Notes under the pieces: generated by a model | Told to the model about the DNA's origin: nothing | The model's database searches: none | The model's input: the letters and a program-made list of their open reading frames with translations, nothing else | Position numbers and translations under genes: made by a program | Source of the DNA: Fidelibacterota bacterium | GTDB taxonomy: Bacteria > Fidelibacterota > Marinisomatia > Marinisomatales > UBA2128 | Assembly: GCA_046861645.1 (NCBI GenBank) | Contig: JBHHUM010000009.1 | Location: 1 to 52,145 of the forward strand | Length of the DNA: 52,145 nt | Reading direction: 5' to 3' | Shown: positions 306-29,130 of the stretch, piece after piece | Numbering within the stretch: the first letter of the stretch is position 1 | Layout of the letters: each line of letters begins with the position of its first letter

Positions 306-770
306 TTATTCCAAGTAACTTTGAATAACATGTTGCATCAGACCCTGAAGTCTGGCAAATCTTGCGCTGATCATGGTGGTGATATTCTTCATAATTATGA
401 ATCCCAGATTTCTATCGTCATCACAAAGTTTCCTGATTTTATCAGTCTGTAATCGTAGCAGTTGGGTGTAGCCATTAGCATAGGCTGAAAGGGTATATTT
501 ATACGGTTTTGTGAAGGCAGACCATCCTAGAGACCCCTTTTCCTTGATAGTATCTAGAGTTAAGATCATTGGAGCGTTCAAGTGGTTCACCGAAAATTTC
601 AGTTTCACCTCTCCCGTGCCTACGATGTACATATAATCTGCATTGTCTCCAGCGTTGAATATTTTTTCCCCATCTTGAAACTCTACAGCCTCTCCTATTT
701 TTACTATTTTTTCTAATTCTTGGGAATTTATTTTACTAAAAACGCTTGATTCCCTTATTAAATCAATCAT
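306..770 (-). CDS. Stand-alone cyclic nucleotide-binding (Crp-type sensory) domain protein without an obvious HTH
   Basis: IFNAGDNADYMYIVGTGEV...GSLGWSA...YTLSAYA cNMP-domain signature. Start placed at 770 (MIDLIRES) after AGGAGAAGGA; the ORF track starts at 791. Confidence 0.8.
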   Translation of the reverse strand: MIDLIRESSVFSKINSQELEKIVKIGEAVEFQDGEKIFNAGDNADYMYIVGTGEVKLKFSVNHLNAPMILTLDTIKEKGSLGWSAFTKPYKYTLSAYANGYTQLLRLQTDKIRKLCDDDRNLGFIIMKNITTMISARFARLQGLMQHVIQSYLE

Positions 771-861
771 AATTCCTTCTCCTGTATTCAATGAAATTTT
801 TCATGGAATATTTTCTAACATAGGTCAAATCTGTGAAAAATTTTCTTCTTTGAGCCCCTCT

Positions 862-1284
862 TTATGGAATAGTTTCATCTGGTTGACTGAAGACCTTAAT
901 GTAGTCCACGAGATAGTCAACCTGATATCGTTTTAAGGTGTTCCCCCACGCTGGCATGATCACCGATTTATTTATCCCTCTACCGCCCTGAACGATGACT
1001 TCAGCCAACCGTTCAGAAGAGAATGCTTTCATGTAATCCCGATCACTGAGATCACGCGGTCGAGGAGTAAGATTGTAAGAATTGAACCCGTCACCTCTAC
1101 CTGATACTCCATGACAAACTGCACAATATTTATTGTAAAGATAGGCACCCTGTTGCTGTTCGTAGGTTAATTTACTACTGATCACAAAAGACTCAGAAAG
1201 ATTCTTTTCGGGGATCTTATTATAGCTGCAGCCTGGCCAGCTTACCAGTAGTACAAGAATCAGGAAAGATGACATTGCTCTCAT
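862..1284 (-). CDS. Exported monoheme cytochrome c (class I)
   Basis: Hydrophobic N-terminus with possible lipoprotein Cys, one CAVCH motif, distal Met in IMPAWG. Confidence 0.88.
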   Translation of the reverse strand: MRAMSSFLILVLLVSWPGCSYNKIPEKNLSESFVISSKLTYEQQQGAYLYNKYCAVCHGVSGRGDGFNSYNLTPRPRDLSDRDYMKAFSSERLAEVIVQGGRGINKSVIMPAWGNTLKRYQVDYLVDYIKVFSQPDETIP

Positions 1285-3260
1285 TCTGCTTCTTCCAGAC
1301 TCATGATGTACGCAGTGATCTGTTTCGCTTCCATATCCGTGAGTCCTTGGTTGGGATCAATAGTATCCGGACGGTAATATTGAGGATTTTTCATCCAGGA
1401 ATATATCCAGCCAGGTTTTGATCTTTTGGCGGTTTCGTTTAGAGGAGGTCCTACATATCCGCCTTTTCCGTTGATCTGATGACACGATTGACAACCGTAA
1501 ATTTCGAATAATAACTTTTCCCCCTGTTTAATCATTTTTGGTTCATTGAGAGGGATATCAATACTATCAATATCATCATCGAGAAAGACAGTATTTATAT
1601 AGTTAGCTGTGAATTTCATCTCTGCTTCGCTCATAAAAAGATTGGGCATGCGTTCGGTGAGGGTTGGCCTTAGAGTATAGGGGATTTTGAAATAATTTCG
1701 TAACCAGGAGTGATATACTCGACTCCCTTCCAGACTCAGGTCTGTAGCCAGAAGAAAGCCACTATTTTGAATTTTATGACAAGTAAAACAGGCATATTTA
1801 TTGATAATGCGACCGAACTCTCCCTGGGGTACGTAGTGGTCATGTTCTTTGTCTTTGTGGACGAGATATTTATCAGGTATTTCCTCCTTCCTTAGGGAAA
1901 GAAGAGCACTAGTAACAGCTCGAATTTCTTCATCGGAAAAACCGAAATTGGGCATACGCGAATTAGTTAAAAAATGCTTTGGATTCTTAATTTTGTGATA
2001 AACGTATGAAGGTCTCGTTTCCTCAATTTCAGCTTCCCCAAATTCCATTTCAATCTGAGGTCTGCTACCGACGTAAGACAGATCCGGCCCCATGTTTCTT
2101 TCCACTCCTGCAACGGAAAGTTCATGACAGCCCAGGCAGTTATAATTGTTGAATAGTTTCAGTCCTTTTCGATAATAGTCAGGATCAGGAATATGGGACA
2201 AACTGGTTGTATCTTCTTCTAAATCCCACTCTTTGAATTCACTCAGGATGTAGGCGGCTACAGCAATGGCATCTTTTTTTGAAAAACCGTACTCAGGCAT
2301 GGGAACCCCGGGATGTAAACCTTTGGGATTTCGTATATAGTTGTATATCCAGATAGGGGTGACAGCGGAAGCGATCTGACCTATTTCAGGCGCCAGATGA
2401 CCGCCTTTTCCGTTTATTTGATGACAGCTGATACAGCGAGCTTCACGTACACGTGTTTTTCCCAGGTCAACAAGCTTTTCATCCGGCCACTCCTCTTGGA
2501 GAGCATCTGGTAAAGGCTCTAACTGCATTTCCTCTGGATACTGATTGAAGGTCATAAGGAAGTCGGTGAGGATCTGAATCTCTTCATCAGTCAAATTAAA
2601 GTTCGGCATTTTGGTATCTGGCTGAACTTTTCGGGGATCCTTTAACCAACGAACCAACCATTGTCTGGTAGTCTTTTTCCCAATACCGTCCAAGCTGGGG
2701 ACAAATTCTGGAGTATAACCCGGTAAATTATGACAAGAGACACAATTGTATTGCTGGATCAGCTGCCTTCCTCTTGATAAAATGGGGGCATCCTGTACAT
2801 CTTGATCTTTGTGGCAGACACCACATGCAGCTTCAATAAAGTATAGGGGTAGCATGGGGTCATCCCAGAATTCTACCTCACCGATGGATTCTTCTACACT
2901 GGTGGCGATTCCTTGTCCGTGATGGCAGACTGTGCAACCAAATTCTTCAGGATCATGAAACATTTTAGGGTGCGGGCGAAATGGCTCGGACATATCCACC
3001 AGTTGATAATTACTTACACCTACATGACAGGAAGTACAGCGGTCAACTCGATTTAAATCTTTGATCCAAACTTGCTTGATACCGATATGAACTGGTTTAA
3101 TTCGATAAGGTTGGTCCTTTATTAGAGAGTTGAATTTTTTCTGAAAATACCGCCATTCACTGAAGTAATCCTTTGTGGGAGAAATGGCAGATACAATAAG
3201 AAATATGACCGACGTGAAGGCGAATATGATGCTTAAATCTTTAGGCTTTTTCAGGGACAT
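1281..3260 (-). CDS. Membrane-anchored octaheme cytochrome c associated with the Rieske/cytochrome b complex
   Basis: N-terminal TM helix; 8 CxxCH motifs (CTSCH, CTVCH, CGVCH, CVSCH, CISCH, CLGCH, CFTCH, CQSCH); repeated class-I domains with MP distal Met motifs. Confidence 0.9.
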   Translation of the reverse strand: MSLKKPKDLSIIFAFTSVIFLIVSAISPTKDYFSEWRYFQKKFNSLIKDQPYRIKPVHIGIKQVWIKDLNRVDRCTSCHVGVSNYQLVDMSEPFRPHPKMFHDPEEFGCTVCHHGQGIATSVEESIGEVEFWDDPMLPLYFIEAACGVCHKDQDVQDAPILSRGRQLIQQYNCVSCHNLPGYTPEFVPSLDGIGKKTTRQWLVRWLKDPRKVQPDTKMPNFNLTDEEIQILTDFLMTFNQYPEEMQLEPLPDALQEEWPDEKLVDLGKTRVREARCISCHQINGKGGHLAPEIGQIASAVTPIWIYNYIRNPKGLHPGVPMPEYGFSKKDAIAVAAYILSEFKEWDLEEDTTSLSHIPDPDYYRKGLKLFNNYNCLGCHELSVAGVERNMGPDLSYVGSRPQIEMEFGEAEIEETRPSYVYHKIKNPKHFLTNSRMPNFGFSDEEIRAVTSALLSLRKEEIPDKYLVHKDKEHDHYVPQGEFGRIINKYACFTCHKIQNSGFLLATDLSLEGSRVYHSWLRNYFKIPYTLRPTLTERMPNLFMSEAEMKFTANYINTVFLDDDIDSIDIPLNEPKMIKQGEKLLFEIYGCQSCHQINGKGGYVGPPLNETAKRSKPGWIYSWMKNPQYYRPDTIDPNQGLTDMEAKQITAYIMSLEEAE

Positions 3261-3313
3261 CAGAATTGATTAGAGCATCGAAGTATTCGTGAAGTCATTC
3301 TTATGAATATTCA

Positions 3314-4024
3314 TCAGTAGATTCCCTCTATCCAGGGCCACGACCACCGCCAATAAGGTCCACGGAAGAATACCCCAATAATGGTGAGAACAGTAGCAAT
3401 CACGACAAACCACGTCATAATCCAATGGGTGAGAGACATTTCCCGTAACCATCCTAAGAATCCGCTTTCTCTAGGGAAGAAGTAGGGAATCATCATAAAT
3501 CCGTAGACTAATATTGTAGGAACAGAAATAGCCCAGGCATGAAAAAAGATCATAGCCACTACAATTATTATCATAGTCGATGTTAGCAAAAACAAGGTTT
3601 GTTGCTGTTTCGACTCCCACAAACCTTGACGTTTGATGTTGATATCGAAATAAGGGATCACAATGAGGGCAAGAACCACCAGTGTTGGAATTAAAACACC
3701 TCCTACGACGGGTGGGAAATAATGTAATAATTCCTGAAGCCCGAGAAAGTACCAGGGAGCTTTAGCGGGTACTTCTGTATGTTGAGGATCGGCGATGTGC
3801 TTCAGCGGGGCATCGAAAATGAGGGATACCAGGGAAAGCAGAATGATTAATACCTGTAAGGCAATAATGCCCCTGATTACGAGGTGTGGGAATGACATTA
3901 TCATTTCCTCGTCTTCGCGGTGTACTGCTGCAGAAGTTTCACGTTTAATAAAGGCGACCCTTTTCTGCTCAGCTTTTGAAGAGGAATCGGAATAAGCTAT
4001 AAATTTTTTGTCAGTCTCAGTCAT
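3314..4024 (-). CDS. Cytochrome b C-terminal subunit (subunit IV/QcrC-like)
   Basis: [23 protein letters not shown] (PEWY-variant Qo motif); multiple TM helices; follows the cytochrome b N-terminal gene. Confidence 0.85.
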
Positions 4025-4757
4025 TTTTCTTTTTCTTTGAGAACAAAGGTTGAACGCCCCCGTCTTTTCTCACTCTCCAGAAATGAATTCCTATTAGAAT
4101 GCTGGCAATAAAGGGTAATATTAGACAGTGTAGAACATAGAAACGGAGGAGGGTATTTTCGCCGATTGAATTTCCTCCCAATAGTAAAAATTTTATTTTT
4201 TTGCCAATGAAAGGAGCTGCATCGGCCATATTTGCCCCAACATTCACGGCCCAATAAGCAAGTTGATCCCAGGGCAATAAGTATCCGGTATAACTAAGAA
4301 ATAAGGTGACAATCAGCAGCATTACTCCTAACGCCCAATTGAACTGCTTGGGAGGCCGGTAGGCGCCAGCATAAAAAACTCGTAACATATGTAAAAATAC
4401 TACGGCAACCATCGCATGAGCGGACCAACGATGGAGGTTTCTTAAGAACACACCTGAGGAGACAACGAATTGTAAATCCTTCATATCCCAATAAGCTTTG
4501 GGAACAGAAGGGTGATAGTAGAGCATCAGGTAAATCCCAGTAAGAGTCAGAATTAAAAAAAGGCTGAAAGCGATAAATCCGAGATAAAATGTGGCGGTAA
4601 ACCGAATTGAATCAACTCTCGATTTTACAGGGAGGAGGTGTAGAAAAAAATTGTTAAAGATCGCTTTTGATCTACCGAGATTGTGAGAAAACGAGCCACT
4701 GCGAAAAATTGACTTCCAGGCTTTTGTAGCTCTTAGCTTTTCCAGTAAATCTGCCAT
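4017..4757 (-). CDS. Cytochrome b6-type N-terminal subunit
   Basis: [45 protein letters not shown]...IGIH heme b ligands. Confidence 0.93.
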
Positions 4758-4859
4758 AGTCTATTAATAACTCATAAAAACGGAACCTGATAAACAATCA
4801 TATGATCCTTTGAACAGTTGGACACTTATGTGCTGAGCATGTTTCAAAGATTCATCCCC

Positions 4860-5333
4860 TTACACTTTCAGAACATAATTATCATCAACGATTACTCCTT
4901 TGTCAACAATGAGTTCTCCCCGATCGTTCTGCTCAATTAGCAAATGCTTCAGTGGTTTAGGAGCAGGCCCACTCAATACTTCTCCTTTCAGGTCAAAGAT
5001 GCTTCCATGACATGGGCAAGCGATCTTTTGTTCTGAGGTGCGATAGTTCGTGATACATCCCAAGTGCGTGCAGACGGCCGAGAGTGAATAAAAATATCCG
5101 GCTTTTGCCCGGACGATATAGACTTGCTGTACTGAATTGAGGGTAACACTATCAGCGGAGAAATCCTCAGGTGAACCCGCTTTGAATTTGGTTGGTGGTT
5201 CAAACAGTACATTCGGTGATAAATATTGAAAGGAGAGAATGGATCCACCACCTATCGTTACACCTATAGATCCAAGTCCTATTTTAAAAAGAAACTCTCT
5301 TCTATTCATTTTCTTCTTATTCTTTTCTGACAT
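4860..5333 (-). CDS. Rieske [2Fe-2S] subunit of a quinol:cytochrome c oxidoreductase
   Basis: Tat motif NRREFL plus TM helix; CTHLGC and CPCHGS boxes; GPAPKPL. Confidence 0.94.
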   Translation of the reverse strand: MSEKNKKKMNRREFLFKIGLGSIGVTIGGGSILSFQYLSPNVLFEPPTKFKAGSPEDFSADSVTLNSVQQVYIVRAKAGYFYSLSAVCTHLGCITNYRTSEQKIACPCHGSIFDLKGEVLSGPAPKPLKHLLIEQNDRGELIVDKGVIVDDNYVLKV

Positions 5334-5500
5334 GAATAAAGCTCCTGCGGATTATATTTAGTAAGTATTCCTGTAAGCTTTAATATTATCGACTGTGACT
5401 TTTGGAAATATGTTATTTCCAAACCAGAGTGTAATTTTCATCTAATCATCACTTTTAGTTTTTTAGGATTTGTGTCCATATTATGGCACAGCAATTGTTG

Positions 5501-7429
5501 TTAAGAAACTGAGCGACTTTCCCTCGAAAATTCTGAATTATGCTCCGAATATGTTGCCAACTGAAATTCTTCCATAGTAATACAACCTGTGGGACATCGT
5601 TTGGCACACAAACCACACCTGATACAGGTTTGATCATCTTTAATCATCACAGCTCCGTAGCGTTCCGGGTCATCCGCTCTCTGCCCCAGAATGAAATTGT
5701 CCTGATGGGAGGTGAAAAAGCGCAACATATCATTACTGAATTCTATCTGATCAAAAAACACTAAGGAGATACAATCTTCCGGGCAGATATCGACGCAACC
5801 CCCACATAAGATACATTCACTGCCTGACTCATCAATACCTTCAAAGGTTGTATTAATCCAGCATCTTAGACATCGTTGAGCTTCTTTAACGGCCTGCTCA
5901 TCAGTGTAGCCCAATTCTACTTGTGCAATTCCAACCCGTCTGTCAATTTCTAAAGCTGGTACCTTTTGGCGAGAAACAGTTTCAAAATCTGGGATTTGTT
6001 CATAATTGAAAGAATTATAAACTGATATCTCAATTGTCTGATGTGTTCTTTTCTCACCTGACAGGAAGGCATCAATAGCCGCTGCCGCTTTTTTCCCATC
6101 AGCTATGGCACTGATGGCATTTCTCACACCAAAAGCCACATCTCCCCCTGCAAAGACACCTTTTGCAGTTGTTTCCAAGGTCTCGGGATTAACCTTGATA
6201 GTATTTCGGGGAGTAGTTTCAATACCATCTTCATCGCTGATGAAATTCAAGTCTGAAGTTTGGCCAATGGCCATAATTATGGAATCGGCTTGTATGATTT
6301 TCTCCGTCCCGGGTGCAAAGGTAGGATTGAACCTGCCCTGATCATCAAATACTGAGACACAGTCGATAGTTTCTAATCCGGTTACTCTACCATTTTCCCC
6401 GATAATACGGTTTGGACCCAAGGCTGGATGAATAAAAATCCCCTCTTCCATGGCTTCTTCGATTTCAAGATCAGTAGCTGGCATTTCGATTCTTGATTCC
6501 AGGCAGACCATATGTACTTCCTTAGCGCCAAACCTGACAGCTGAACGGGCGACGTCTAAAGCCTCGATAATACTGGAGGCAACTTCATCTGTTTTCTCCT
6601 GTCGGAGAGCAGTACGAGCGACGTCAATAGCCACATTACCGCCACCGATAACGATGATCTTATGACCTAATTCAACCCGGTAGTTAAGATTAGCATTCAG
6701 TAGAAAATCTACTGCCCGCAGGACACCGTCTAACTCCACACCCTCAATGTTTAAATCGCGGCTTTTGTGAGCCCCCAACGCAATAAAAATTGCAGCATAA
6801 CCGTTATCTTTTAAGTCCTTAATAGTAAAATCTCTACCTAATCTTTTGCCGAGTTTTAGTTCAACACCAAGATTTAAGATAGCGTTGATTTCCATGCGAA
6901 TCAGCTCTCTAGGTAAACGATATTCAGGGACGCCAAGACGCAACATACCTCCAGCGACATCCTGGGCTTCAAACACGGTAACGCGATATCCAGACAGGGC
7001 TAAGTCGTGGGCGGCCGTCAGGCCTGCTGGACCAGATCCTATTATGGCCACCCACTCTTCTTTAGGAGGAACTTCAGGTCGGAAAACATCTCGGATTCGA
7101 GAGATATCGATGAGACTTTCCACACCATATTTTTCGCAAACAAATCTTTTCAATGCCCTGATCGAAACTGGATCGTCGACGTCCCCACGTCTACAGGAAT
7201 CTTCACAAGGTGCGGCGCAAATCCGTCCGCAGATTGAAGCAAAGGGGTTCGGAAAACGGGCAAGACGATAGGCGTCCTCCCACTGACCCTGTGCGATGAG
7301 ATTTACGTATCGGCCTGCCTCAGTGTGTACCGGACAGGCTTCAGCACAGGGGAAATTTTTAGAGAGCCATTCTGCATTAACTAATTTCTGTCTGCTTTTG
7401 TCCAATTTCGACTGATTATTCGTACTCAT
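5501..7429 (-). CDS. Cytoplasmic FAD/NAD(P)-dependent Fe-S oxidoreductase (GltD/NfnB/DsrL-like architecture) with C-terminal 2x[4Fe-4S] ferredoxin
   Basis: CAEACP...CGRICAAPCEDSC; IIGSGPAG (FAD); VIGGGNVA (NAD(P)); FAGGD; RCLRC; CILCGGCVDICP and CIRCGLCAKRCP; no signal peptide. Confidence 0.9.
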   Translation of the reverse strand: MSTNNQSKLDKSRQKLVNAEWLSKNFPCAEACPVHTEAGRYVNLIAQGQWEDAYRLARFPNPFASICGRICAAPCEDSCRRGDVDDPVSIRALKRFVCEKYGVESLIDISRIRDVFRPEVPPKEEWVAIIGSGPAGLTAAHDLALSGYRVTVFEAQDVAGGMLRLGVPEYRLPRELIRMEINAILNLGVELKLGKRLGRDFTIKDLKDNGYAAIFIALGAHKSRDLNIEGVELDGVLRAVDFLLNANLNYRVELGHKIIVIGGGNVAIDVARTALRQEKTDEVASSIIEALDVARSAVRFGAKEVHMVCLESRIEMPATDLEIEEAMEEGIFIHPALGPNRIIGENGRVTGLETIDCVSVFDDQGRFNPTFAPGTEKIIQADSIIMAIGQTSDLNFISDEDGIETTPRNTIKVNPETLETTAKGVFAGGDVAFGVRNAISAIADGKKAAAAIDAFLSGEKRTHQTIEISVYNSFNYEQIPDFETVSRQKVPALEIDRRVGIAQVELGYTDEQAVKEAQRCLRCWINTTFEGIDESGSECILCGGCVDICPEDCISLVFFDQIEFSNDMLRFFTSHQDNFILGQRADDPERYGAVMIKDDQTCIRCGLCAKRCPTGCITMEEFQLATYSEHNSEFSRESRSVS

Positions 7430-8363
7430 CCCATGGATATAGATTGATAAGATAGGCCAGGATGGAATTGATATCTTCTTCCGAGAGCTGTTCTTCCCAG
7501 GAAGGCATGGTTAAGGGGGGATCTGGTAACTCGAGATTCAGTTTTTGTAGCTTGGAACTGCCGTTTAAGATTTTTTTGTGGATGGAGTGGTATTGAGCCA
7601 GGAAGCGACTATAGTTCTCGATGGGTGACTTATCTTCCTGACTATTCAAATCCACATTGGTTGTTAGCAAGTCAATAACAATATCGGCATCTTCTTTCCA
7701 ATAAATTTTCATCTTGTCAGCCAGATTGTTTAGTGGTGGGACATATTCATTAATATAGTTGGGATTATATACTCCTCCAGCTCCGTTTTCTCCGTGACAG
7801 GTGATACAACCTTTACTCTGGTACAAGTATTCTCCTTTGGCGACAAATGAATCGAAGTTCTCAGGTGGGTTGTGTATTGTACAATAAGTATCTATGGAAT
7901 AATCATTGGAGAGTTTATATAAGGTGTCACTTGTTACTATAACCCTACCACGCATATAATAATGACACTCCCCACAGACTGTCAGACAATAGTAAGTGAA
8001 CTCACCGATTTTATCTGGTTGTACCGTAATTTCTACGGTATGACCTGCTTCAATTTGTATAGGACCGATTCCTAACTCAGGGACATAGAAGCTATGTGTA
8101 CCATCTGAACTTGTGAGTCGCAGAAGAATTTCATTGTCTTTTTGTAGTCTGAGGACAGCGGGGTGGAATGATTTCCACCAGTAATTAATCCCGTTTACCT
8201 CTTCGTCAGTCCAGACCCCATTTTTCATTACCCCTGTGAGATGAATTACAGGAAGACTATCATAAGAGCGTGAAGGGTTGTAGCTAAAAATAGTTAATGG
8301 GAGTCCTGCCAGACCGACTAAAGTGATACCGACAGCCAATAATTCTTGGAATCCTCGCTTCAT
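7416..8363 (-). CDS. CuA (cytochrome oxidase subunit II-like) domain fused to monoheme cytochrome c
   Basis: N-terminal TM; GTHSFY...CLTVCGECHYYM CuA motif; CITCH heme motif with TMPSW distal Met. Confidence 0.85.
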   Translation of the reverse strand: MKRGFQELLAVGITLVGLAGLPLTIFSYNPSRSYDSLPVIHLTGVMKNGVWTDEEVNGINYWWKSFHPAVLRLQKDNEILLRLTSSDGTHSFYVPELGIGPIQIEAGHTVEITVQPDKIGEFTYYCLTVCGECHYYMRGRVIVTSDTLYKLSNDYSIDTYCTIHNPPENFDSFVAKGEYLYQSKGCITCHGENGAGGVYNPNYINEYVPPLNNLADKMKIYWKEDADIVIDLLTTNVDLNSQEDKSPIENYSRFLAQYHSIHKKILNGSSKLQKLNLELPDPPLTMPSWEEQLSEEDINSILAYLINLYPWDEYE

Positions 8364-8569
8364 TGAGATATTTCCTGTCCATCGTCGGGGTGTCTAACCT
8401 TGACTTTTGGTACATCAGGAAAACATTCTTTTACTAAATGACAGTCACAAATAATGCATTCACCCACACATTTAGGACAATGGACAATGACAGTACCATC
8501 ATCGAGTTCTTCTATAGGTATGTCTTGAAAACATTCATTACAAAAGATGATTCTAGTATTGTTCTCCAC
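8360..8569 (-). CDS. Small Cys-rich putative metal-binding protein
   Basis: 69 aa with 8 Cys (CNEC, CPKC, CIICDC, C); GGGGAG RBS before the GTG start; stop overlaps the next start by 4 bp. Confidence 0.65.
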   Translation of the reverse strand: MENNTRIIFCNECFQDIPIEELDDGTVIVHCPKCVGECIICDCHLVKECFPDVPKVKVRHPDDGQEISQ

Positions 8570-8599
8570 GTTAATCTCCCCGTTTGTTTATTGTAGTTA

Positions 8600-10090
8600 T
8601 CATCCTGCAAAGAATCGTAGAAAGGCGAAAGTCACCAGAGTGGAAAAAGCTCCCATAGGAAGCAGTCCCTTTAATGCTGCCTGTGGAGAACCAAACAGTT
8701 TTTCTCCGATTTGGTAGCAGTGTTTGAGAGCATAAAACAGACCGGTTAAGAGCAGTAAGATCTGAGCAAAGACGAGGTATTCAGGCCACAGGGGTGTCCA
8801 AGGGAAATCTGCCGTTCCAAATAAGTTCCACCCCCAACCTAACGGGTCGGAGATGACAGAAATGATATAGGACCCATTTACAAAAAGTAGTGGGACACTG
8901 AATGCTATCCAAGCCAGCAAACCCAGTGGAACCAGAAGATAGGAGTAGCCAAGGAAGATTTCCTTTAGGGGAAGATGGACTGCGTTAGCCAGGCGGCGAG
9001 CTAAGAGGACGCACCCATAAAAAATACCGGGAACGACAACCAGAGCAGTTGACCATAGTATCAGAGCATAAGTGGCAAAACCACCCCAGGCATGGGTTTC
9101 GGCTACGTTAGCCCAATCTTTGATAGTACCATTCGGTCCAAGAAGAATCACCGAATATGCCATAGCCAACGCCAACATAATGAAACCTTTCCAAGCCTCG
9201 TCATAACCTCTTATTTGAGTATCGCTGGAGAAGGGTCTTAGATTTAAGGCGATATTGTCATTCGGACACGATTTAACGCACTCCATGCAAAGGCTACAGT
9301 AGTTGTTACGATCGAGCTTTCCCATATAGACGAACCAGGGACAAGCCCAACCATTTTCACTTCCTGTCCGACATCCTTTAGTTTTGCACTTTAAACAGAC
9401 ATCCCTGTCTTTTGAACGTAGTTCAACCGTAGATGTCATGGCATACAGACTCAGAAAGCCACTAACGGGACAGATGTAGTTACAAAAGGTTCTCATCCGG
9501 TAGATTAAGGCCAATAAAGTGGCCAGAATGACGAGACTACCTAAAACACCAACCGTTACTATGGGGCGGGTAACCAGGTGCGCGCTGAAAGTACACAAGC
9601 TGAGGAAGGCAAAATTTTGAAGCCAAATGTTGGTTAGTCGTTTTGGCCAGCGGAGGTTGAGGCCAAACATTTTATTTTTTATTCCTTTTGTTTTGCCTTT
9701 TCGTACCTTGATGAGTGCTCGTCTTTGTAACCAGTCACCGAAAAATGGCATGGGACAGACCGCACACCAGATTCGTGAAGCAAAGGGTACCATAACCGCT
9801 ATTAACATGAACCACCACAATATCCAGATGAATACGATCATGATGTTTTTGTTACCTACTGGGGTACCAAAAATGCCGGCAATAAAAAGAATCTGGAAAA
9901 CGAACAGGTTGGGTAACACAAGAAGGAATTGGTAAGATCGTAAACGAGCAAAGTTTTTCAAGCCGGGGATCCATTTAAAAAGGTCGACCCGAAACCCTTG
10001 GATTGCAATTGGTTCCTTTTTAGGGCGGCTTTTTCTTCTTCTATCTTCGGGAGGTTTTGTCCCCGGAGCTTGTGTCAGCAATTCGTTCAT
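8600..10090 (-). CDS. Polytopic 4Fe-4S membrane protein (NapH/NosH/CcoG-like polyferredoxin)
   Basis: WCAVCPMP, FCNYICPV, CLKCKTKGC, CSLCMECVKSCP; many TM helices. Confidence 0.85.
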   Translation of the reverse strand: MNELLTQAPGTKPPEDRRRKSRPKKEPIAIQGFRVDLFKWIPGLKNFARLRSYQFLLVLPNLFVFQILFIAGIFGTPVGNKNIMIVFIWILWWFMLIAVMVPFASRIWCAVCPMPFFGDWLQRRALIKVRKGKTKGIKNKMFGLNLRWPKRLTNIWLQNFAFLSLCTFSAHLVTRPIVTVGVLGSLVILATLLALIYRMRTFCNYICPVSGFLSLYAMTSTVELRSKDRDVCLKCKTKGCRTGSENGWACPWFVYMGKLDRNNYCSLCMECVKSCPNDNIALNLRPFSSDTQIRGYDEAWKGFIMLALAMAYSVILLGPNGTIKDWANVAETHAWGGFATYALILWSTALVVVPGIFYGCVLLARRLANAVHLPLKEIFLGYSYLLVPLGLLAWIAFSVPLLFVNGSYIISVISDPLGWGWNLFGTADFPWTPLWPEYLVFAQILLLLTGLFYALKHCYQIGEKLFGSPQAALKGLLPMGAFSTLVTFAFLRFFAG

Positions 10091-10114
10091 ATTCTGGTGG
10101 CTCTCAGTATTTGT

Positions 10115-10657
10115 CTATGAATCCTCTGGTTTATTTTTTTGAAGAGGAAATGGAGCTTTCTGTGGCCGTATGAAAACCCAGATCATTCCTAAAAAGAGTC
10201 CCAAAACACTACCAACACCAGCATGAAAAGGGGTGTTTGGTTGAACGATTAGCTCTCCCTGCATGAAAGGGTGCATGGTGCCGCAGGTGTGGGAACAACG
10301 GTATCGGTATTTTCCTCTTCGATTGGTGATCAACGTAATCGCCTCAACCTCAGTCCACTCTTCTTCTTTGGAGGGATGGCGAATATTAAAAGTTTTACTA
10401 TGAGCAAAAATCTCTGCGTCTAGGTCATAACCTTCGAGGTAGAATCCATGAACGACATCCAATGAAGTTAGTCTAATATTAAGTGTATCCCCTTTATTTA
10501 CGTGCAGCACTGCTGGTTCAAAAGCGTATTGGCGAGCCTTTATGAAGATGTCTCGACTTGTCGGTTTTTCCCCAGTGGAAGAGAAAAATATTCCCATCAT
10601 TCCGCCTAAAATGGTAATTAATATGATCCTAAAGGCAGATTTAACTTTAGTCGTCAT
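10115..10657 (-). CDS. Membrane-anchored CuA cupredoxin (cytochrome oxidase subunit II-like, stand-alone)
   Basis: DVVHGFY...CSHTCGTMHPFM CuA motif; N- and C-terminal hydrophobic helices. Confidence 0.83.
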   Translation of the reverse strand: MTTKVKSAFRIILITILGGMMGIFFSSTGEKPTSRDIFIKARQYAFEPAVLHVNKGDTLNIRLTSLDVVHGFYLEGYDLDAEIFAHSKTFNIRHPSKEEEWTEVEAITLITNRRGKYRYRCSHTCGTMHPFMQGELIVQPNTPFHAGVGSVLGLFLGMIWVFIRPQKAPFPLQKNKPEDS

Positions 10658-10868
10658 TTTATGAATTATTTATTTCCACTTTTCACGAAAGGTTCTGATC
10701 GCCCCATTTTGTTTTAATTCCATATCTCATGAAATAGATTGACAAAGAGTCGGGGTAAAATGTTAGTGGTTCCTTTCACGAATTTTTAATCACCAGGTTC
10801 AAAAGACTATTTAACCCTATTTACCTTAGAGATTTTTTATTACTCTCTGTAATGGTTGAAAAATCTGA

Positions 10869-11456
10869 TTAACGTCTTTTCAACGTGAAGTTAACCTCGA
10901 TCTCCCCCTTTTCCGGAATTTCAATTGCTACAGATTGGTTCTTTAATCTTTCGTGCCAGGCAATCAGATTATAGTTCCCCGGAGGAACCCCGATAATTCT
11001 AAAGGCACCATCCTTGTCGGTTCTAAAAAAGTACTTATTCTGAAGCACTAAAACCCAAGCTTCCATTTCAGGATGAACATTACATAACAGTACTGAAGTA
11101 CAACCTTCCTCTTTGAATGTATAGGAACGGGTTTCACCTTTAGGCCAGGTCCCCAGGTTCATTTTTTCGGCACATTTATCTGGTGTGAAAACGTTATGTA
11201 GTACATCATCACTGTTGATAAAGTCCACGGTAGTACCTTTCACGATAGGAAGTACATGAGGTTTAAATTCTAAGTTGACCTGATCCATACCGACTGATGA
11301 CGTTGCGGGTGGCTCTGGTGAATCGATTTCCTCAATATAAACCACAACATCCCGACTGTCACGTACACCTTTACAAGTTACAGTACCAAAGACATCTCCA
11401 GCGAAAATGGATGAAACCCACATCGCAATGATGAATATCGCAGCAGTTCTACTCAC
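10869..11456 (-). CDS. Exported cupredoxin (type-1 copper motif) with carboxypeptidase-regulatory-like domain
   Basis: Signal peptide; LHNVF...CNVHPEM (H...C-x2-H-x2-M); TDKDGAFRIIGVPPGNY. Confidence 0.78.
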   Translation of the reverse strand: MSRTAAIFIIAMWVSSIFAGDVFGTVTCKGVRDSRDVVVYIEEIDSPEPPATSSVGMDQVNLEFKPHVLPIVKGTTVDFINSDDVLHNVFTPDKCAEKMNLGTWPKGETRSYTFKEEGCTSVLLCNVHPEMEAWVLVLQNKYFFRTDKDGAFRIIGVPPGNYNLIAWHERLKNQSVAIEIPEKGEIEVNFTLKRR

Positions 11457-11559
11457 GATTTACTCCTTTCTCATCTTGAAAGATGAAAAGTTGTTTGACT
11501 CAGTTTACGTTCTTCGAATACTCCGCTTTCTCCCCTATTAATTCTATGACAATCCAGCC

Positions 11560-12858
11560 TCAGAAGGCAAAGTTGAATTGAAAAGTGAACAAGCCATCAT
11601 CTTTACGTGTATCGTCCAGTGGAAGAAGATATTCGACGGAGCATTTCACATTTGCTCTAAGCATGACAATTATCCCAGGTATTAAGCTGGTAGTTGGATC
11701 AGTGCTATCATCATCGGTGTCCTTATCGGTAAATTCGTACCTTGCGCGGGCAATTAACCAGGGAAAGATGACATAATTTCCTTCTGCGAAGTAAGCCAGT
11801 GAATTACGTTCAGTTCCGTCATAATCGGATTTCATGTTTAGCGCCAGAGCAGTGATGGTTAAACGATTAATCCACCAGTCGATGTCTCCACCAAGCAAAC
11901 TGAATTGATCCTCCAAATTATCATTCAATGCAGTTCCATTGTAGTAGAATCCACCCAGGCGGAGAGAGTTATCGATGTAAAATGCAGACTGCTCACTAGC
12001 CTGTCCCTCCGTTCCACCGATTTCTCCGAGGCCACCTAATTTGTACGTAACTCTACCATAGATATCTTTGGCGGTATTTACGTCAAAATTATCAACATCA
12101 TTTTGTCCATTAGCAAAGCCCACTGTATAGGTGAAACCTCCAGTTCCTCCAGCGCCGTTACCGGCACCCCAAAGTTCAATACCTCCACCAGAACCGTCCC
12201 GTAAGCGCCAGGTACCAGATTGATTTTTTAAATCTTCCACATTATAATGTGTACTTGTCAGGCGACGGCCTTCTGGGGAAGCACTGAGTCCCACTGAACC
12301 GAACTTGAGGTGCATCAATGGACTGAAATCATATTGTAGAGCAAATGAATAGGCCAGTTCTTCCGCGTGTTCGAGCTCGACTTCACCAAAGAATGAGATA
12401 TCTTCACCGATGGCCCCACCGTAAAACAGTTCAAACTCATGAGGAATCTCAAAATAAAGAGCTTTGTCATCCTCAACAACAGTGGAGGTGGTCGGATCGT
12501 CCCATGATCCCCCATAATAGACTCGTCCGAAGCCGTGGACAGAAAGTGGTGAAGTACCCGGGATGTTAGCCGGCCAGATCGCATCGGGAAAAACTCGTTT
12601 GTAGCCCTCGGAACCCAGACTTACTGGTTCCTCTTTCGTCATTTCAGGATCCTGACCTTCCGGGTAGCGATATCCATTATTGCGAAAAGCTTTCCCAAAA
12701 GCATTCAACTTTGGGTAGGCGTAATGACAGGTAGAACAACTTGTCTTGTACTTTCTAGAGAAGCTGGGAATGCTTAATGCTTGAGTAGGAAGCAACATCA
12801 TATAAACAAATGCCAAACTGACAATAATTGAGAAAAAACTAACGACAGACTTTTTCAT
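11560..12858 (-). CDS. Cyc2-like outer-membrane porin-cytochrome c fusion
   Basis: Signal peptide, then IPSFSRKYKTSCSTCHYAYPKLNAFGKAFRNNGY (Cyc2 N-terminal signature); amphipathic beta-strands; C-terminal FNFAF barrel signal. Confidence 0.8.
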   Translation of the reverse strand: MKKSVVSFFSIIVSLAFVYMMLLPTQALSIPSFSRKYKTSCSTCHYAYPKLNAFGKAFRNNGYRYPEGQDPEMTKEEPVSLGSEGYKRVFPDAIWPANIPGTSPLSVHGFGRVYYGGSWDDPTTSTVVEDDKALYFEIPHEFELFYGGAIGEDISFFGEVELEHAEELAYSFALQYDFSPLMHLKFGSVGLSASPEGRRLTSTHYNVEDLKNQSGTWRLRDGSGGGIELWGAGNGAGGTGGFTYTVGFANGQNDVDNFDVNTAKDIYGRVTYKLGGLGEIGGTEGQASEQSAFYIDNSLRLGGFYYNGTALNDNLEDQFSLLGGDIDWWINRLTITALALNMKSDYDGTERNSLAYFAEGNYVIFPWLIARARYEFTDKDTDDDSTDPTTSLIPGIIVMLRANVKCSVEYLLPLDDTRKDDGLFTFQFNFAF

Positions 12859-12892
12859 TATAGTCCTCCTTTTGATTTATCCCCTAATATTA

Positions 12893-12908
12893 GTCAAAAA
12901 GCGTGCCA
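12893..12908 (-). promoter_or_regulatory. Sigma54 (-24/-12) promoter for the cyc2-like operon
   Basis: Minus strand reads TGGCACG-CTTT-TTGAC versus consensus TGGCACR-N4-TTGCW; ~35 bp upstream of the ATG, which has an AGGAGGA RBS; adjacent to a sigma54 activator gene. Confidence 0.75.
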
Positions 12909-12946
12909 GAAGAAAAAATGCCGCATTTTAGAAACACTTTCGAGAG

Positions 12947-13004
12947 CAATAAGTTGTTAGTGATAAGTATTTTCAGTTTAGACTGCAACATAAATGGTAG
13001 CAGT
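12947..13004. promoter_or_regulatory. Putative IHF site and upstream activator dyad for the sigma54 promoter
   Basis: Minus strand TAACAACTTATTG (12947-12959) resembles WATCAA-N4-TTR; imperfect dyad ACTGCaacataaatggtaGCAGT at 12982-13004. Confidence 0.4.
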
Positions 13005-13120
13005 TTTATGTATTTACGTTGCACTTGAACGCATTAATTCATAAATAATTTATTTCTGAATCAAGATAAAACTAGAAAAAGGGGAGAGAGCAGTTAATTG
13101 ATTTATATTCGGGTGCTTTT

Positions 13121-13289
13121 TAGCCTGTTTAATTCATCAGCCGCCAAGTTCGCGAAGTTTCACGAAGAGAAAACAAAAAAGTCCACAGAAATCCTGTTGG
13201 AAGATAATTTTCAATCATAATGCTCATATCTGCTATATTATCTATAATTTGCGAATCTTTGCGTTCCTCGTGGCGAATAATCCAGGTTA
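13121..13289. repeat. ~170-bp MITE/REP-like element with imperfect terminal inverted repeats
   Basis: Left TAGCCTGTTTAATTC versus reverse complement of right end TAACCTGGATTATTC (11/15); internal inverted ~9-nt periodic motifs cgccaagttcgcgaagtttcacgaag / tttgcgaatctttgcgttcctcgtggcg. Confidence 0.5.
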
Positions 13290-13340
13290 GTACCTCGCCA
13301 TTAATCTTTGTTTTTAAGAGAAGGGGAGAGGAGGAAATGA

Positions 13341-14786
13341 TCAGGTAGTGCGGAATTCTTCTGATCTGATTTTATGCTTTCTCATCAGTCGTTGAAAACT
13401 CTGTCTTTCGATGTGGGCCTTTTTAGCTGCTACAGTAACATTACCATTCGTCAAACTTAGCAGGTGTTTAACGAACTGTTTTTCAAAGGCATCGATTATT
13501 TCGGTTCTGATTTCTCTCAGATTGAGATTATTGTGGACATGATCAGATTCAAAGAACCTTTTGAAAGGAAAAGTAAATTTATGACGAGATAAGGATTGTT
13601 TTTCTTTAAGGTACTCCGGGAAAGATTCAAAAGTCAAAACATCACCTCTTTCTCTGGTGATGCAATATTCCAGTATATTCTGCAATTCACGCACATTGCC
13701 GGGATAGTTGAAATCCATTAAAAAATCCATTACCTCTTTAGAGATGACTTTAACTTGCTTATGGAGGATGCGATTGTATCTTGATAGAAAGAATTCGGCT
13801 AACAAAGGGATGTCCTCTCGACGGTTACGTAATGGTGGAAGAATAATCGGAATGACCTGTAAACGATAGTAGAGGTCTTTACGGAAAGTACCGGCTTTTA
13901 ACATTGTTGACAGGTCTTTATTGGTAGCGGTAATAAATCGTGCATCAACGTTAATTTTTTTGTTTCCACCGATACGCTCGAAAGTCCTTTCTTCCAGAAC
14001 CCGTAGCAGTTTCTGTTGCAGATGGAGAGGCATATCTCCAATTTCATCCATGAAAATAGTTCCCGATTTAGCGACCTCGAATTTTCCTAATTTCTTTGAA
14101 GTGGCACCGGTAAAAGCTCCCTGTTCATATCCGAAGAGTTCACTTTCGAGGAGAGCCTCGGGCAGTACTGTACAGTTGATGGCGATAAATGGATCACGGT
14201 TATTCTCGCCTGCGTTATGGATGGCCTTGGCTACTAATTCCTTTCCAGTGCCACTCTCGCCAGTGATAATGACATTGGTAGTATTGGGTGTTAGTGCAAT
14301 AGCGCCAATTTGCTTGAATACCTCCTGCATGAGTGGGTGATTCCCAATAATTTCATCTTTTTGATCTGGATGATCTAAGGCTGCTTTGAGATCGCTTACT
14401 TCCTGTTGCAGCCTTACCATTTCTATGGCGTGTTTTGCTACCACTCGCACCTTTTCTACATCAAGCGGCTTAGTGATGTATTCATAAGCACCTAATTTCA
14501 TGGCTTCAATGGCAGTCTGCATGGTCCCATAACCAGTGATTACGACGATTGGAGTTTTTATACCGGATTTCTTTACTTCTCTTAAAACGGATAAGCCATC
14601 TCTCTTGGGCATGGCAATATCAATGAAAGCTAAATCTGGACGTTCGTTCCGGAGGGTATGCAGAGCCTTTTCCCCATCGGGGGAGGTGACCACGGAATAA
14701 TTGTAGTCCTCGAAAGTTCGTTTAAAGGCAAAGATGATATTTTCATCATCATCGGCGATAAGTATTTTAGGGCTAGGCATAAGCAC
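13341..14786 (-). CDS. Sigma54-dependent response regulator (NtrC/AtoC family)
   Basis: REC (IADDD, DIAMP, KP), Walker A GESGTGKE, GAFTGA, MDEIGD, YPGNVREL, Fis-type HTH; start may be 14780. Confidence 0.95.
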   Translation of the reverse strand: MLMPSPKILIADDDENIIFAFKRTFEDYNYSVVTSPDGEKALHTLRNERPDLAFIDIAMPKRDGLSVLREVKKSGIKTPIVVITGYGTMQTAIEAMKLGAYEYITKPLDVEKVRVVAKHAIEMVRLQQEVSDLKAALDHPDQKDEIIGNHPLMQEVFKQIGAIALTPNTTNVIITGESGTGKELVAKAIHNAGENNRDPFIAINCTVLPEALLESELFGYEQGAFTGATSKKLGKFEVAKSGTIFMDEIGDMPLHLQQKLLRVLEERTFERIGGNKKINVDARFITATNKDLSTMLKAGTFRKDLYYRLQVIPIILPPLRNRREDIPLLAEFFLSRYNRILHKQVKVISKEVMDFLMDFNYPGNVRELQNILEYCITRERGDVLTFESFPEYLKEKQSLSRHKFTFPFKRFFESDHVHNNLNLREIRTEIIDAFEKQFVKHLLSLTNGNVTVAAKKAHIERQSFQRLMRKHKIRSEEFRTT

Positions 14787-24600: not shown

Positions 24601-24655
24601 AAGTTAGAAGCACTCTTGGATAACATTCCTTAAAAAAGTAATTTCGAGGGATCCT

Positions 24656-25615
24656 ATGACGAGAAAAAGGTATTACTGGACACTTTTACTTTTAATCGTG
24701 TTACCGGTATGGTTACTCCCTCAAGGAGGTGTTTCCTGAAGGATTCCCATCCTCCCGGTCGGGAGCCTTGCCGAAAGGAACAGTGCTGAGACTGGAAAAC
24801 TGGTTGTAGGGATAGGTTATAAATATGAGTATCTTGCAGATGTAAGGGTGAAGAGTACTTCCTGGGAAAATCCGAATCATGAACGTACCAATAATTCCGC
24901 CTATATGTTTTATCTCAATTATAGTCTTTCCAATAATTTCTCTGTGGAGGCACTTGTACCCTGGCAGATAGTTACTAACGAAAAGATTCTATTCCCCGGG
25001 CAATATTCTCATCAACCTCAGGGTGGTAAATATGTTCGACATGCACAGGGTATGGGGGACGTGGTTATCATGGGACGCTATCAATTCAACATAAAGATGG
25101 CTCAACTTTCTGTTGGATTGGGTGTGAAGCTGGCAACTGGTGATTCTGAAGCGATGGATGATTTTGGAGTTCGTATTTCAGATAATCTTCAAATCGGTTC
25201 AGGTACGGTGGATCCTGTTTTCCTGATTTTTAGTGCCTATCCGGGAAACAAATGGTTATTCCTGGGAAATCTCTTTTCACGTATTCCACTCCGAGAGAAC
25301 ATCTATGGCTATCAATATGGAGCTGAGTCCCATGTCAACCTGGGTGTCAATTATGATCTATCAGATCTTATCTTCCTGAGAGGGAATCTGAACGGGATTT
25401 TTACGTCTCGGGATAAGTACCAGTATGGAGAACCAGAGTTTAGCCGGGGAGGGCGTTGGTTATATTTTATTCCAGGACTTGGAATAAGGTTGACACGTAT
25501 GCTGACAATGGATTTGCAATATCCTTTTCCGGTTTACCAGTATGTAAACGAAAGTCAACTGATCCCCACAGATCTAATGACAGTGAATCTCAGTTATACA
25601 TTAAAGGTAAAATGA
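24656..25615 (+). CDS. Outer-membrane beta-barrel (MetA-pathway-of-phenol-degradation-like transporter family) with in-frame UGA28, putative selenoprotein
   Basis: ATG 24656 encodes signal peptide MTRKRYYWTLLLLIVLPVWLLPQGGVS, then TGA (24737-24739), then continues in frame (RIPILPVGSLAERN...) into the 24848 ORF; barrel motifs GMGDVVI, GLGVKLATG, QIGSGTVD. Confidence 0.75.
24739..24769 (+). promoter_or_regulatory. Bacterial SECIS-like hairpin
   Basis: CTCCC-GGTC-GGGAG stem-loop (24752-24765) with GGUC at +21..+24 counting the U of UGA as +1; basal AAGG/CCTT pairing. Confidence 0.7.
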
Positions 25616-26700: not shown

Positions 26701-26747
26701 GCGCATTTATTTGCTGACCTTCTCTTTGTCATCCTGATTAATCACTG

Positions 26748-28971: not shown

Positions 28972-29130
28972 ATGGGCCGCATTGGATTACTGAAGGAGTT
29001 TTGGCTTTATCTCAAGATTAGAAAGCGCTGGTGGTTAATACCTATCGTGATCTTTCTGATTTTTCTTAGTCTCTTGGTTGTACTCACTGAAGGCTCGGCT
29101 CTGGCTCCATTCATTTATACCATTTTCTAA
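28972..29130 (+). CDS. Small membrane protein, SxtK/DUF5989 family (52 aa, not in ORF track)
   Basis: MGRIGLLKEFWLYLKIRKRWWLIPIVIFLIFLSLLVVLTEGSALAPFIYTIF; RKRWWLxP and APFIYTIF signature. Confidence 0.88.
   Translation: MGRIGLLKEFWLYLKIRKRWWLIPIVIFLIFLSLLVVLTEGSALAPFIYTIF

Follow-up and report, generated by a model that had tools for sequence, protein, structure and literature searches.

A Cyc2-like porin-cytochrome in a conserved copper- and quinone-linked gene run of a Fidelibacterota genome: entry or exit of electrons?

Cyc2 is the main marker for calling iron oxidisers in metagenomes, and most of its homologues occur in organisms never shown to oxidise iron. The question is raised again by the stretch analysed here (the window, 52,145 nucleotides), which is contig C165 of a 2.5-Mb metagenome-assembled genome (MAG), 94 % complete, of a Fidelibacterota bacterium. 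On its minus strand lies a 13-gene run (306-12858) that opens with a Cyc2-like gene and continues with copper proteins and quinone-linked membrane modules. Does this run take electrons in or give them away, and through which partners? By every sequence and fold criterion that could be tested, the predicted product of the first gene is Cyc2-like, and the core of the run, as judged from sequence comparison, is common to many uncultured phyla. As for direction, we lean towards uptake, most likely from Fe(II), over export to a soluble oxidant, and hold that reading tentatively.

The 13 co-oriented genes named in an earlier note on this DNA were all found, behind a kinase/regulator pair with which they span 306-17184. 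That note had counted 13 redox genes; the total is reached with a cyclic-nucleotide (cNMP)-binding gene and a 69-aa Cys-rich open reading frame (ORF), but the cNMP-binding gene is not a redox gene. The overlapping start and stop codons were confirmed at four places (1281-1284, 4017-4024, 7416-7429 and 8360-8363). Only 305 bases separate the end of the run from the end of the contig, and its downstream limit is therefore not seen. Domains were assigned by Pfam and NCBIfam profile searches, and haems were counted as CxxCH motifs in the translations. In their order after the regulator, the genes are as follows.

11560..12858, minus strand: Cyc2-like fused monohaem cytochrome-porin, 432 aa (single CSTCH, motif, 16-strand barrel model)
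10869..11456, minus strand: type-1 copper protein of plastocyanin/amicyanin type with a CarboxypepD_reg-like C-terminal domain (Pfam Copper-bind and CarboxypepD_reg)
10115..10657, minus strand: CuA cupredoxin, membrane-anchored (Pfam Cupredoxin_1/COX2; 34 % identical to the CuA domain of a fusion protein on contig C43 of the same genome)
8600..10090, minus strand: NapH-like membrane polyferredoxin, 496 aa, about nine hydrophobic segments (Fer4_5, 24.1 bits; hydropathy)
8360..8569, minus strand: Cys-rich protein, 69 aa, without a leader (63-72 % identity in loci L034, L074, L079 and L083)
7416..8363, minus strand: CuA cupredoxin fused to a monohaem cytochrome c (Pfam Cupredoxin_1/COX2 and Cytochrom_C; CITCH at residue 186)
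5501..7429, minus strand: NfnB/GltD-like NAD(P)-binding FAD protein, cytoplasmic, four predicted [4Fe-4S] clusters (Fer4_20, Pyr_redox_2 and 2x[4Fe-4S])
4860..5333, minus strand: Rieske [2Fe-2S] protein with an RREFL twin-arginine (TAT) leader (Pfam Rieske)
4017..4757, minus strand: cytochrome b6, four-helix (Pfam Cytochrome_B; ExtP model 263.9 bits, cut-off 290)
3314..4024, minus strand: subunit IV-like membrane protein (Pfam Cytochrom_B_C; ExtQ model 47.5 bits, cut-off 150)
1281..3260, minus strand: octahaem cytochrome c, membrane-anchored (8 CxxCH; one N-terminal hydrophobic segment; Pfam)
862..1284, minus strand: monohaem cytochrome c, probable lipoprotein (one CAVCH motif; Pfam)
306..791, minus strand: cNMP-binding-domain protein (Pfam cNMP_binding only, with no DNA-binding domain detected)

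The Cyc2-like gene and its copper partner

In Keffer et al. 2021 (PMC8406198), Cyc2 is described as a protein of at least 365 aa with one CXXCH, the motif AXPXFAR[Q/K][T/Y], a PXL after the haem site and a 16-strand porin; the motif is called unique to Cyc2, and its position is given as '5 upstream' with no reference point. The window protein, at 432 aa, carries a predicted leader (a hydrophobic segment at residues 5-23, then ALS) and a single haem site, CSTCH, at residue 41. The N-terminal signature reported by the earlier note was recovered as SIPSFSRKY, KTS, CSTCH, YAY and PKL, with three residues between the motif and the first Cys and with PKL four residues after the His. Compared with the family consensus AIPxFARKY in an alignment of 31 relatives, the motif has two conservative Ala-to-Ser changes. 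Among the best 120 relatives, the strict motif was present in 73 and a relaxed version in 103, the exact spacing was kept in 102, a single CXXCH was found in 118, and 119 were at least 365 aa long. The beta-barrel, also claimed before, was supported by an AlphaFold2 model of 16 strands (predicted local distance difference test, pLDDT, 72.9), which Foldseek matched to the 16-stranded porins OmpC, OmpF and PorB at about 1e-11 and OprP (2o4v) at 2.9e-10. Pfam and NCBIfam families gave no match for the protein, and a PDB sequence search with the porin returned nothing below E 0.5. A protein-atlas search gave unnamed clusters plus one cluster in which 12 % of members carry Porin_O_P. The barrel has a net charge of -8.4 per 100 aa, compared with 0 to -2.9 in three other outer-membrane proteins of the window and a family median of -4.2; so strongly acidic a barrel would suit a cation.

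The protein resembles the Acidithiobacillus ferrooxidans Cyc2, the Leptospirillum Cyt572 and the Mariprofundus Cyc2 PV-1 in its leader, its one CXXCH, its AXPXFAR[Q/K][T/Y]-type motif, PXL, 16 strands and length of about 430 aa. It differs from known Cyc2 in the two Ala-to-Ser changes, in its host, a Fidelibacterota-like starch degrader, and in having as operon neighbours a copper gene and genes for quinone-linked complexes. According to PMC8406198, the Cyc2s reportedly tested, A. ferrooxidans Cyc2, Cyt572 and Cyc2 PV-1, oxidised Fe(II). In deep-mine communities where MAGs of Ignavibacteriales and Zixibacteria carry iron-oxidation genes, FeGenie has called cluster-3 Cyc2 (PMC8478452), and two of the related loci described below bear labels from that site. 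The bioanode paper PMC7399161 makes no mention of Cyc2.

The same wiring might act on a different small redox substrate, for example Mn(II)/Mn(III), Cu(I)/Cu(II), a reduced sulfur or iodine compound or an organic shuttle of quinone type, in which case the Cyc2 label would mislead for this clade. This idea draws on the statement by Keffer et al. that the function of distant homologues, above all cluster 3, is uncertain (PMC8406198), on the occurrence of the family in many lineages without known iron oxidation, and on the SCO1-like and YtkA-like genes that accompany the copper-rich cluster in relatives. However, no positive sign of any alternative substrate was found, the Cyc2-specific motif is well kept, and a cluster-3 Cyc2 oxidised Fe(II) when tested in 2026, according to PMC13647500. 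We consider another substrate quite improbable.

Directly after the Cyc2-like gene stands the type-1 copper gene, whose translation contains the ligand pattern H...C-x2-H-x2-M. The same adjacency was found in 60 of the 63 related loci with at least 1.5 kb of downstream sequence. In this lineage, electrons seem usually to reach oxidases through type-1 copper proteins with a CarboxypepD_reg tail. The same genome encodes another, divergent Cyc2-like protein (464 aa; C43:24999-26390; L036:7000-8394), with one CNQCH followed by VAFPKL and a degenerate motif upstream; its gene is 13 kb from a NosZ-like cluster and has that of a 308-aa cytochrome c nearby.

Conserved core and optional parts across genomes

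A contig scan with one genome per species, which returned only the close family, gave 78 loci, all from MAGs; these were compared with the window proteins by tblastn. Their labels include Ignavibacteriales, Bacteroidales, Calditrichota, Eisenbacteria, Zixibacteria, Latescibacterota, Acidobacteria, Gemmatimonadales and others. Gene content was tabulated for the 51 loci with at least 6 kb downstream:

GltD-like flavoprotein and Rieske/cytochrome b (Rieske/b): 37 of 51 loci
GltD, Rieske/b and the CuA/NapH block: 2 of 51
Rieske/b without GltD: 2 of 51
alternative complex III (ACIII)-like set (molybdopterin-like protein, Fe-S protein, NrfD, cytochromes c): 5 of 51
CuA/NapH block alone: 1 of 51
none of these sets on that strand: 4 of 51, one of them with an ACIII-like set on the other strand

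In total, GltD and Rieske/b occur together in 39 of the 51 loci, any Rieske/b in 41 and the CuA-NapH block in three. Synteny in other genomes, proposed as a check by the earlier note, is thus conserved over many phyla: the copper protein is nearly constant, and the set of GltD, Rieske/b, octahaem and monohaem cytochromes is the usual partner. The view that the 13 genes form one unit stood for this co-conserved core but not for the CuA-NapH-CuA block, which is optional (two of its three occurrences are with Rieske/b, one without). Judged from gene content, the operon is best described as a composite of three parts: a Cyc2-copper core pair, Rieske/b as its commonest partner, and a rare CuA-NapH insert. 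The full window order recurs in L079 and L083. Neither NosZ nor a haem-copper oxidase (COX1) was present in any of the 78 named-genome loci by tblastn. Such a gene context, conserved across phyla, gives concrete partners with which to test whether electrons are taken from iron or given away.

The ACIII-like version lies beside a Cyc2-like gene in genome G015. The host itself encodes an ACIII-like set (C167:41118-48504; a c7-type cytochrome, molybdopterin-like protein, Fe-S protein, NrfD, tetrahaem cytochrome c and EB_dh), which resembles the set that replaces the Rieske module in G015 and in the five named loci.

Two genomes illustrate how the parts separate. In G115 (L034 = G115:C54), the order is kinase, regulator, Cyc2-like protein (33 % identical to that of the window), YtkA-like protein, copper protein (75 %), CuA (70 %), NapH-like (85 %) and CuA-cytochrome c (67 %); the cluster lies between an integrase and a transposase and lacks the Rieske module. 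In G014 (L037 = G014:C68), a Cyc2-like gene, a copper protein and the GltD-Rieske/b set stand beside a transposase and an integrase, without the CuA-NapH block. The kinase, regulator, copper protein and NapH-like protein of G115 share 75-85 % identity with their window counterparts, compared with just 33 % for the porin, as though the porin gene had been exchanged like a cassette.

These arrangements bear on the possibility that the run is no single functional unit and instead a mosaic of laterally acquired cassettes, with the CuA-NapH block serving NosZ or oxidases independently of the Cyc2-like gene. The complementary content of G115 and G014, their flanking mobile-element genes and the apparent cassette swap in G115 all agree with a mosaic. 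So does the patchy distribution: in the host phylum, 43 of 201 genomes had some match to the porin, mostly to the N-terminal haem motif alone, and two genomes of the same genus had none. Furthermore, proteins of other lineages match those of the operon at 65-85 % identity, whereas a housekeeping SurA-like protein of the window has its best named relatives at 41 % ('Fidelibacterota') and 33 % ('Marinimicrobia'). Against a mosaic stand the tight packing with its four overlaps, the lack of any terminator-like site in the minus-strand intergenic gaps of the run, and the two recurrences of the full order. In addition, a survey of 44 metagenome loci of at least 6 kb holding a NapH-like gene showed a type-1 copper gene adjoining the block in 22 and a Cyc2-like gene within the same locus in 8. 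We regard the mosaic as very improbable.

The two quinone-linked modules

The Rieske/b part of the run is of the kind described for the anammox bacterium Kuenenia. The closest solved relatives of the Rieske protein are Kuste4569 (9rk4, 1e-19) and Kustd1480 (9rk3, 5e-17), and those of the flavoprotein are Bfu/Nfn-type subunits and NfnB. The flavoprotein gene lies directly upstream of the Rieske gene and is co-conserved with it in 39 of the 41 loci with Rieske/b. According to PMC12954380, an NAD(P) oxidoreductase and hexa- or octahaem cytochromes accompany b6 and subunit IV in the Kuenenia complexes. Accordingly matched in the window are a Rieske protein with a four-helix b6 and separate subunit IV, an NAD(P) Fe-S flavoprotein in the operon and an octahaem cytochrome c in the place of cytochrome f, as in Kuste4569-4574 and Kustd1480-1485. 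Unlike those, the window has no hydroxylamine oxidoreductase (HAO)-like octahaem enzyme and no anammoxosome, and the likely high-potential partner of its complex is the copper protein with the porin-cytochrome and not nitrite reduction. Pairs of cytochrome b and oxidoreductase genes have been noted more widely by Dibrova et al. (PMC5600118).

The earlier note had proposed a conduit from the outer membrane to cytoplasmic NAD(P). In the anammox scheme (PMC12954380), quinol bifurcation is proposed to reduce NAD(P)+, with the Rieske branch as the high-potential electron sink, and even for Kuenenia a single physical complex reducing NAD(P)+ is unproven. Since NAD(P)H would come from quinol and not from a donor on the Rieske side, direct flow from the outer membrane to NAD(P) is doubtful, and by this analogy a simple Fe(II)-to-NAD(P)H route through the Rieske/b complex is mechanistically doubtful. 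Run backwards, an anammox-type complex would consume NAD(P)H. NAD(P)-linked Rieske/b complexes have been studied mainly in anammox bacteria, and here such a complex has a defined candidate high-potential partner.

Outer-membrane conduits paired with Rieske/b complexes are known elsewhere. In A. ferrooxidans, the rus and petI operons encode Cyc2, rusticyanin and an aa3 oxidase, and an uphill bc1 complex with the NAD-binding SdrA. Like the window, these operons combine a Cyc2 in the outer membrane and a cupredoxin with a Rieske/b complex and a protein that binds NAD(P). In contrast, the window has all of these in one operon without an oxidase, its flavoprotein is NfnB/GltD-like and not a short-chain dehydrogenase, and its host is a neutrophilic marine heterotroph. 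The rus-type combination of cyc2, cupredoxin and aa3 oxidase in one operon was not found, as no COX1 occurs in the window operon or the 78 loci and the host's oxidases lie on contig C67. A rus-like order with a distant Cyc2-like gene does occur in G063, with a dihaem cytochrome c, a copper protein of the window's kind and an aa3 oxidase encoded behind that gene. In the Geobacter Ext selenite/tellurite operon, an outer-membrane conduit and a Rieske/b complex are encoded together. The b6, subunit IV and cytochrome c of the window resemble ExtP, ExtQ and ExtS, of which only the ExtS equivalog scored just above its cut-off (103.5 versus 100), with ExtP (263.9) below 290 and ExtQ also below its own. 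The Zixibacteria RBG-1 gene cluster MtrAB-PetAB likewise joins an outer-membrane conduit to Rieske/b (PMC3903129). MtrAB-PetAB and Ext share this pairing with the window; they use decahaem or multihaem porin-cytochromes, whereas the window has a monohaem Cyc2-like protein and copper proteins. No description of the combination of Cyc2, copper proteins and quinone modules was found in the literature searched, in keeping with the earlier suggestion that the module is undescribed; the nearest described cases are MtrAB-PetAB of RBG-1 and the FeGenie cluster-3 calls with Ignavibacteriales and Zixibacteria MAGs (PMC8478452).

The distinguishing feature of this window is the CuA-NapH-like insert with its link to NosZ. 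Both CuA proteins contain the predicted ligand set H...C-x3-C-x3-H-x2-M in their translations. The NapH-like protein scored 31.1 bits against TIGR02163 (cut-off 213) and 30 against NF007013 (cut-off 234), placing it outside the NapH/MauN families. Its family numbers at least 1269 proteins, whose names go no further than 'polyferredoxin' or '4Fe-4S binding protein'; a sequence search gave no solved relative, and its model (pLDDT 63.7) gave no fold match at E <=0.001. NapGH and NosGH are quinol dehydrogenase modules. The window protein is like NapGH, NosGH and NosR in being a membrane polyferredoxin with CxxCP-type motifs and a CxxCxxCxxxCP site, in its weak NapH/MauN similarity and in having a paralogue next to NosZ. 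It differs in about 200 extra C-terminal membrane residues and in lacking a NapG-like partner: Pfam and NCBIfam searches of the operon found no NapG/NosG-like periplasmic ferredoxin gene, and CuA cupredoxins flank the gene instead, as they always do in this type, one of them being fused to it in paralogues. These natural fusions suggest a CuA-NapH contact. The Cys-rich 69-aa protein, which has eight Cys (CxxC, CPxC, CxxCxC, C) and matched no Pfam family, is encoded between the NapH-like and CuA-cytochrome c genes in L034, L074, L079 and L083.

On contig C43 the host has a CuA::NapH-like fusion 40 % identical to the window in its NapH part and 34 % in its CuA part. The gene order there (C43:3337-11636; L117) is Rrf2, haem-b EB_dh, CuA::NapH-like fusion, CuA, SCO1, CuA and NosZ-like, the last scoring 498 bits against the TIGR04246 cut-off of 625. 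For NosD, the host genome gave only weak matches inside very long ORFs, none convincing. In G163, a run of Rieske, b6, subunit IV, multihaem cytochrome c, Cyc2-like and dihaem cytochrome c genes is followed by Rrf2 and then by the C43-type NosZ set in the same order. The earlier note had held that a known terminal reductase recurring in homologous clusters would explain the module away. None was seen in the 78 loci, but paralogues of the CuA-NapH block stand directly upstream of NosZ on C43 and the G163 run includes NosZ, so that for this block the objection applies in part.

Among the 44 metagenome loci, the first kind of CuA was found in 42, the second in 38, EB_dh in 10, the 69-aa Cys-rich ORF in 6 and NosZ in 1. 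One of the metagenome contigs (L144, 2473-11811) carries a complete type II dimethyl sulfoxide (DMSO)-reductase set, alpha, beta, delta and haem-b gamma, followed by CuA, NapH-like and CuA genes. Because the triad occurs beside NosZ, type II DMSO-reductase and copper genes, it seems to be a module that couples periplasmic redox proteins to the membrane in general. It is a candidate membrane link for periplasmic enzymes without a known anchor, including N2O reduction in marine Fidelibacterota. For type II DMSO-reductase-family enzymes, which are periplasmic and anchorless, the triad (adjoined by EB_dh in those 10 of the 44 loci) may be this link. Only one of five genomes with the core cluster had a NapH-like relative, and its neighbours there matched none of the query proteins.

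Direction of electron flow, regulation and setting

We agree with the earlier note that direction and substrate are not readable from the sequence. Starting from the observed gene content, cofactor motifs, modelled barrel fold and co-conservation, we propose a route; where its components lie in the cell, each of its electron transfers, its substrate and its direction are inferred. The Cyc2-type monohaem porin in the outer membrane would react with a dissolved metal ion, most likely Fe(II), and would reduce the periplasmic type-1 copper protein, which would serve as a hub. The hub would be drained by two aa3-type oxidases and a NosZ-like enzyme encoded elsewhere in the genome. Two operon-encoded inner-membrane modules would link it with the quinone pool. 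Within the anammox-type module of Rieske, b6 and subunit IV with octahaem and monohaem cytochromes c, quinol oxidation may reduce NAD(P)+ through the flavoprotein while the other electron passes to the hub; the second module would consist of CuA, the NapH-like polyferredoxin, the Cys-rich protein and CuA-cytochrome c. A sigma-54 two-component pair would switch the operon on.

Uptake of electrons from Fe(II) into a copper hub is consistent with the Cyc2 precedent, the acidic barrel and the high potential of the copper carriers. It also agrees with the placement of Cyc2-like genes, which share a run with aa3 oxidase genes in G063 and adjoin NosZ in G163, and with a vent habitat: DNA runs carrying the window sequence are labelled hydrothermal vent metagenome (four runs, one study). 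The sharing of a run with aa3 oxidase genes in G063 makes sense for electron entry, not for exit. We put this reading at somewhat under an even chance.

Electrons might instead leave the cell. Quinol, possibly also NAD(P)H by way of the flavoprotein, would be oxidised by the Rieske/b and NapH-like modules and the electrons passed along the cytochromes c and CuA proteins, then through the type-1 copper protein and the porin to a dissolved acceptor of high potential such as chelated Fe(III) or Mn(III), the porin-cytochrome being the terminal reductase of an anaerobic respiration in a heterotroph. Much of what weighs against uptake favours this route. Pfam and NCBIfam searches detected no terminal oxidase or reductase in the operon, and a hub with external drains is therefore less economical than a self-contained pathway; for export, donor complex, carriers and exit are all encoded and an oxidase is unnecessary. 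Every alternative partner of the Cyc2-like gene is linked to quinol, be it Rieske/b (41 of 51 loci), the ACIII-like set (5 of 51, and one divergent locus besides) or the NapH-like module (3 of 51), and by analogy with their studied relatives these modules would take electrons from quinol. The NapH-like module adjoins an electron-consuming NosZ, its CuA::NapH-like paralogue being directly upstream of NosZ in the host genome and G163 and beside NosZ in one of the 44 metagenome loci. The host also has an aerobic chain on contig C67 (12184-32882; L118) in the order Rieske, b6, subunit IV, large multihaem cytochrome c, type-1 copper protein with a CarboxypepD_reg tail, Rrf2 and aa3 oxidase. Behind it comes another aa3 cluster, with SCO1; of the host's two, one is directly behind the paralogous copper protein. 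By analogy with this order, the Cyc2-like protein would stand at the acceptor end. The high-potential sink needed by an anammox-type complex (PMC12954380) would also be supplied by export. The host looks like a heterotroph, with starch degradation and type IX secretion, and RuBisCO was not found in its genome at 94 % completeness; a domain search for ATP-citrate lyase, in which no control genome matched, says nothing on carbon fixation.

Three further points count against uptake. The haem domain is poorly modelled by AlphaFold2 (pLDDT <50); the Cyc2 assignment goes as far as motif, length, haem site and modelled barrel; and no RNA run carrying window positions 3300-12900 was listed in a sequence-run lookup.

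Export nevertheless meets difficulties of its own. Copper carriers usually lie near +200 to +400 mV, too high for Fe(III) oxides, and the acidic barrel is unfavourable for anionic metal chelates. The Cyc2-like gene of G063 shares its run with aa3 oxidase genes. In the literature examined, no Cyc2 is reported as a reductase, and one haem in a 16-strand pore cannot touch a mineral, as stated in PMC8406198. Export is rather unlikely in our judgement, and uptake of Fe(II) remains the reading we prefer.

A broader proposal joins several of these elements. The CuA/NapH-like/CuA triad would be a widespread and so far undescribed 'copper-wired' quinone-coupling module that replaces NapGH, NosGH or NosR for NosZ and type II DMSO-reductase-family enzymes. 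Together with a bifurcating Rieske/b complex, it would allow a heterotroph of vents to couple the oxidation of dissolved Fe(II) by its Cyc2-type porin to the reduction of O2 or N2O, with NAD(P)H drawn from quinol. As one joint claim it is unlikely. If true, Fidelibacterota would reduce N2O enzymatically at the expense of iron, by means of a cassette that moves laterally.

Upstream of the run lie the genes and the element that may control it:

14773..17184, minus strand: sensor histidine kinase with Cache, HAMP, PAS, HisKA and HATPase domains (Pfam; homologues upstream of the Cyc2-like gene in related loci)
13341..14786, minus strand: sigma-54-dependent response regulator (Pfam Response_reg and Sigma54_activat)
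12894..12908, minus strand: sigma-54-type -24/-12 element TGGCACGCTTTTTGA, 36 bases upstream of the Cyc2-like start codon, one mismatch

Of the 60 loci with at least 4.5 kb of upstream sequence, 43 have a homologue of the regulator gene on the same strand, no more than 3 kb upstream. Matches to the sigma-54 pattern in the window are at chance level (2 observed, 2.1 expected), so that only the position of the TGGCACGCTTTTTGA element counts. A similar element, by a loose pattern, was found 50-134 bases upstream in 12 of 77 related loci. Since the matches equal chance and the loose version is present in so few loci, the assignment of a sigma-54 promoter is weak. Scans of the window for sigma-70 promoters and terminators gave no enrichment over shuffled sequence. 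Homologues of the cNMP-binding protein at the other end of the run occur within 5 of the 78 related loci, at variable positions.

The remainder of the contig carries starch-degradation, TonB-receptor and type IX secretion genes. A starch utilisation set at 31203-52145 comprises a CBM20/CBM53 type IX secretion protein, a PorV-like protein, a 1247-aa protein without a family match, a TonB receptor, an alpha-amylase, a TrmB-type regulator, a GH57 amylase/glucanotransferase, a phosphorylase and a sodium:solute symporter. Positions 22843-31129 hold a block of FG-GAP/type IX secretion protein, carbamoyltransferase, SxtJ-like protein and GDSL-lipase/TPR protein. This block recurs in G032 (L119 = G032:C1, 10823-18331), directly behind a lone CuA::NapH-like gene.

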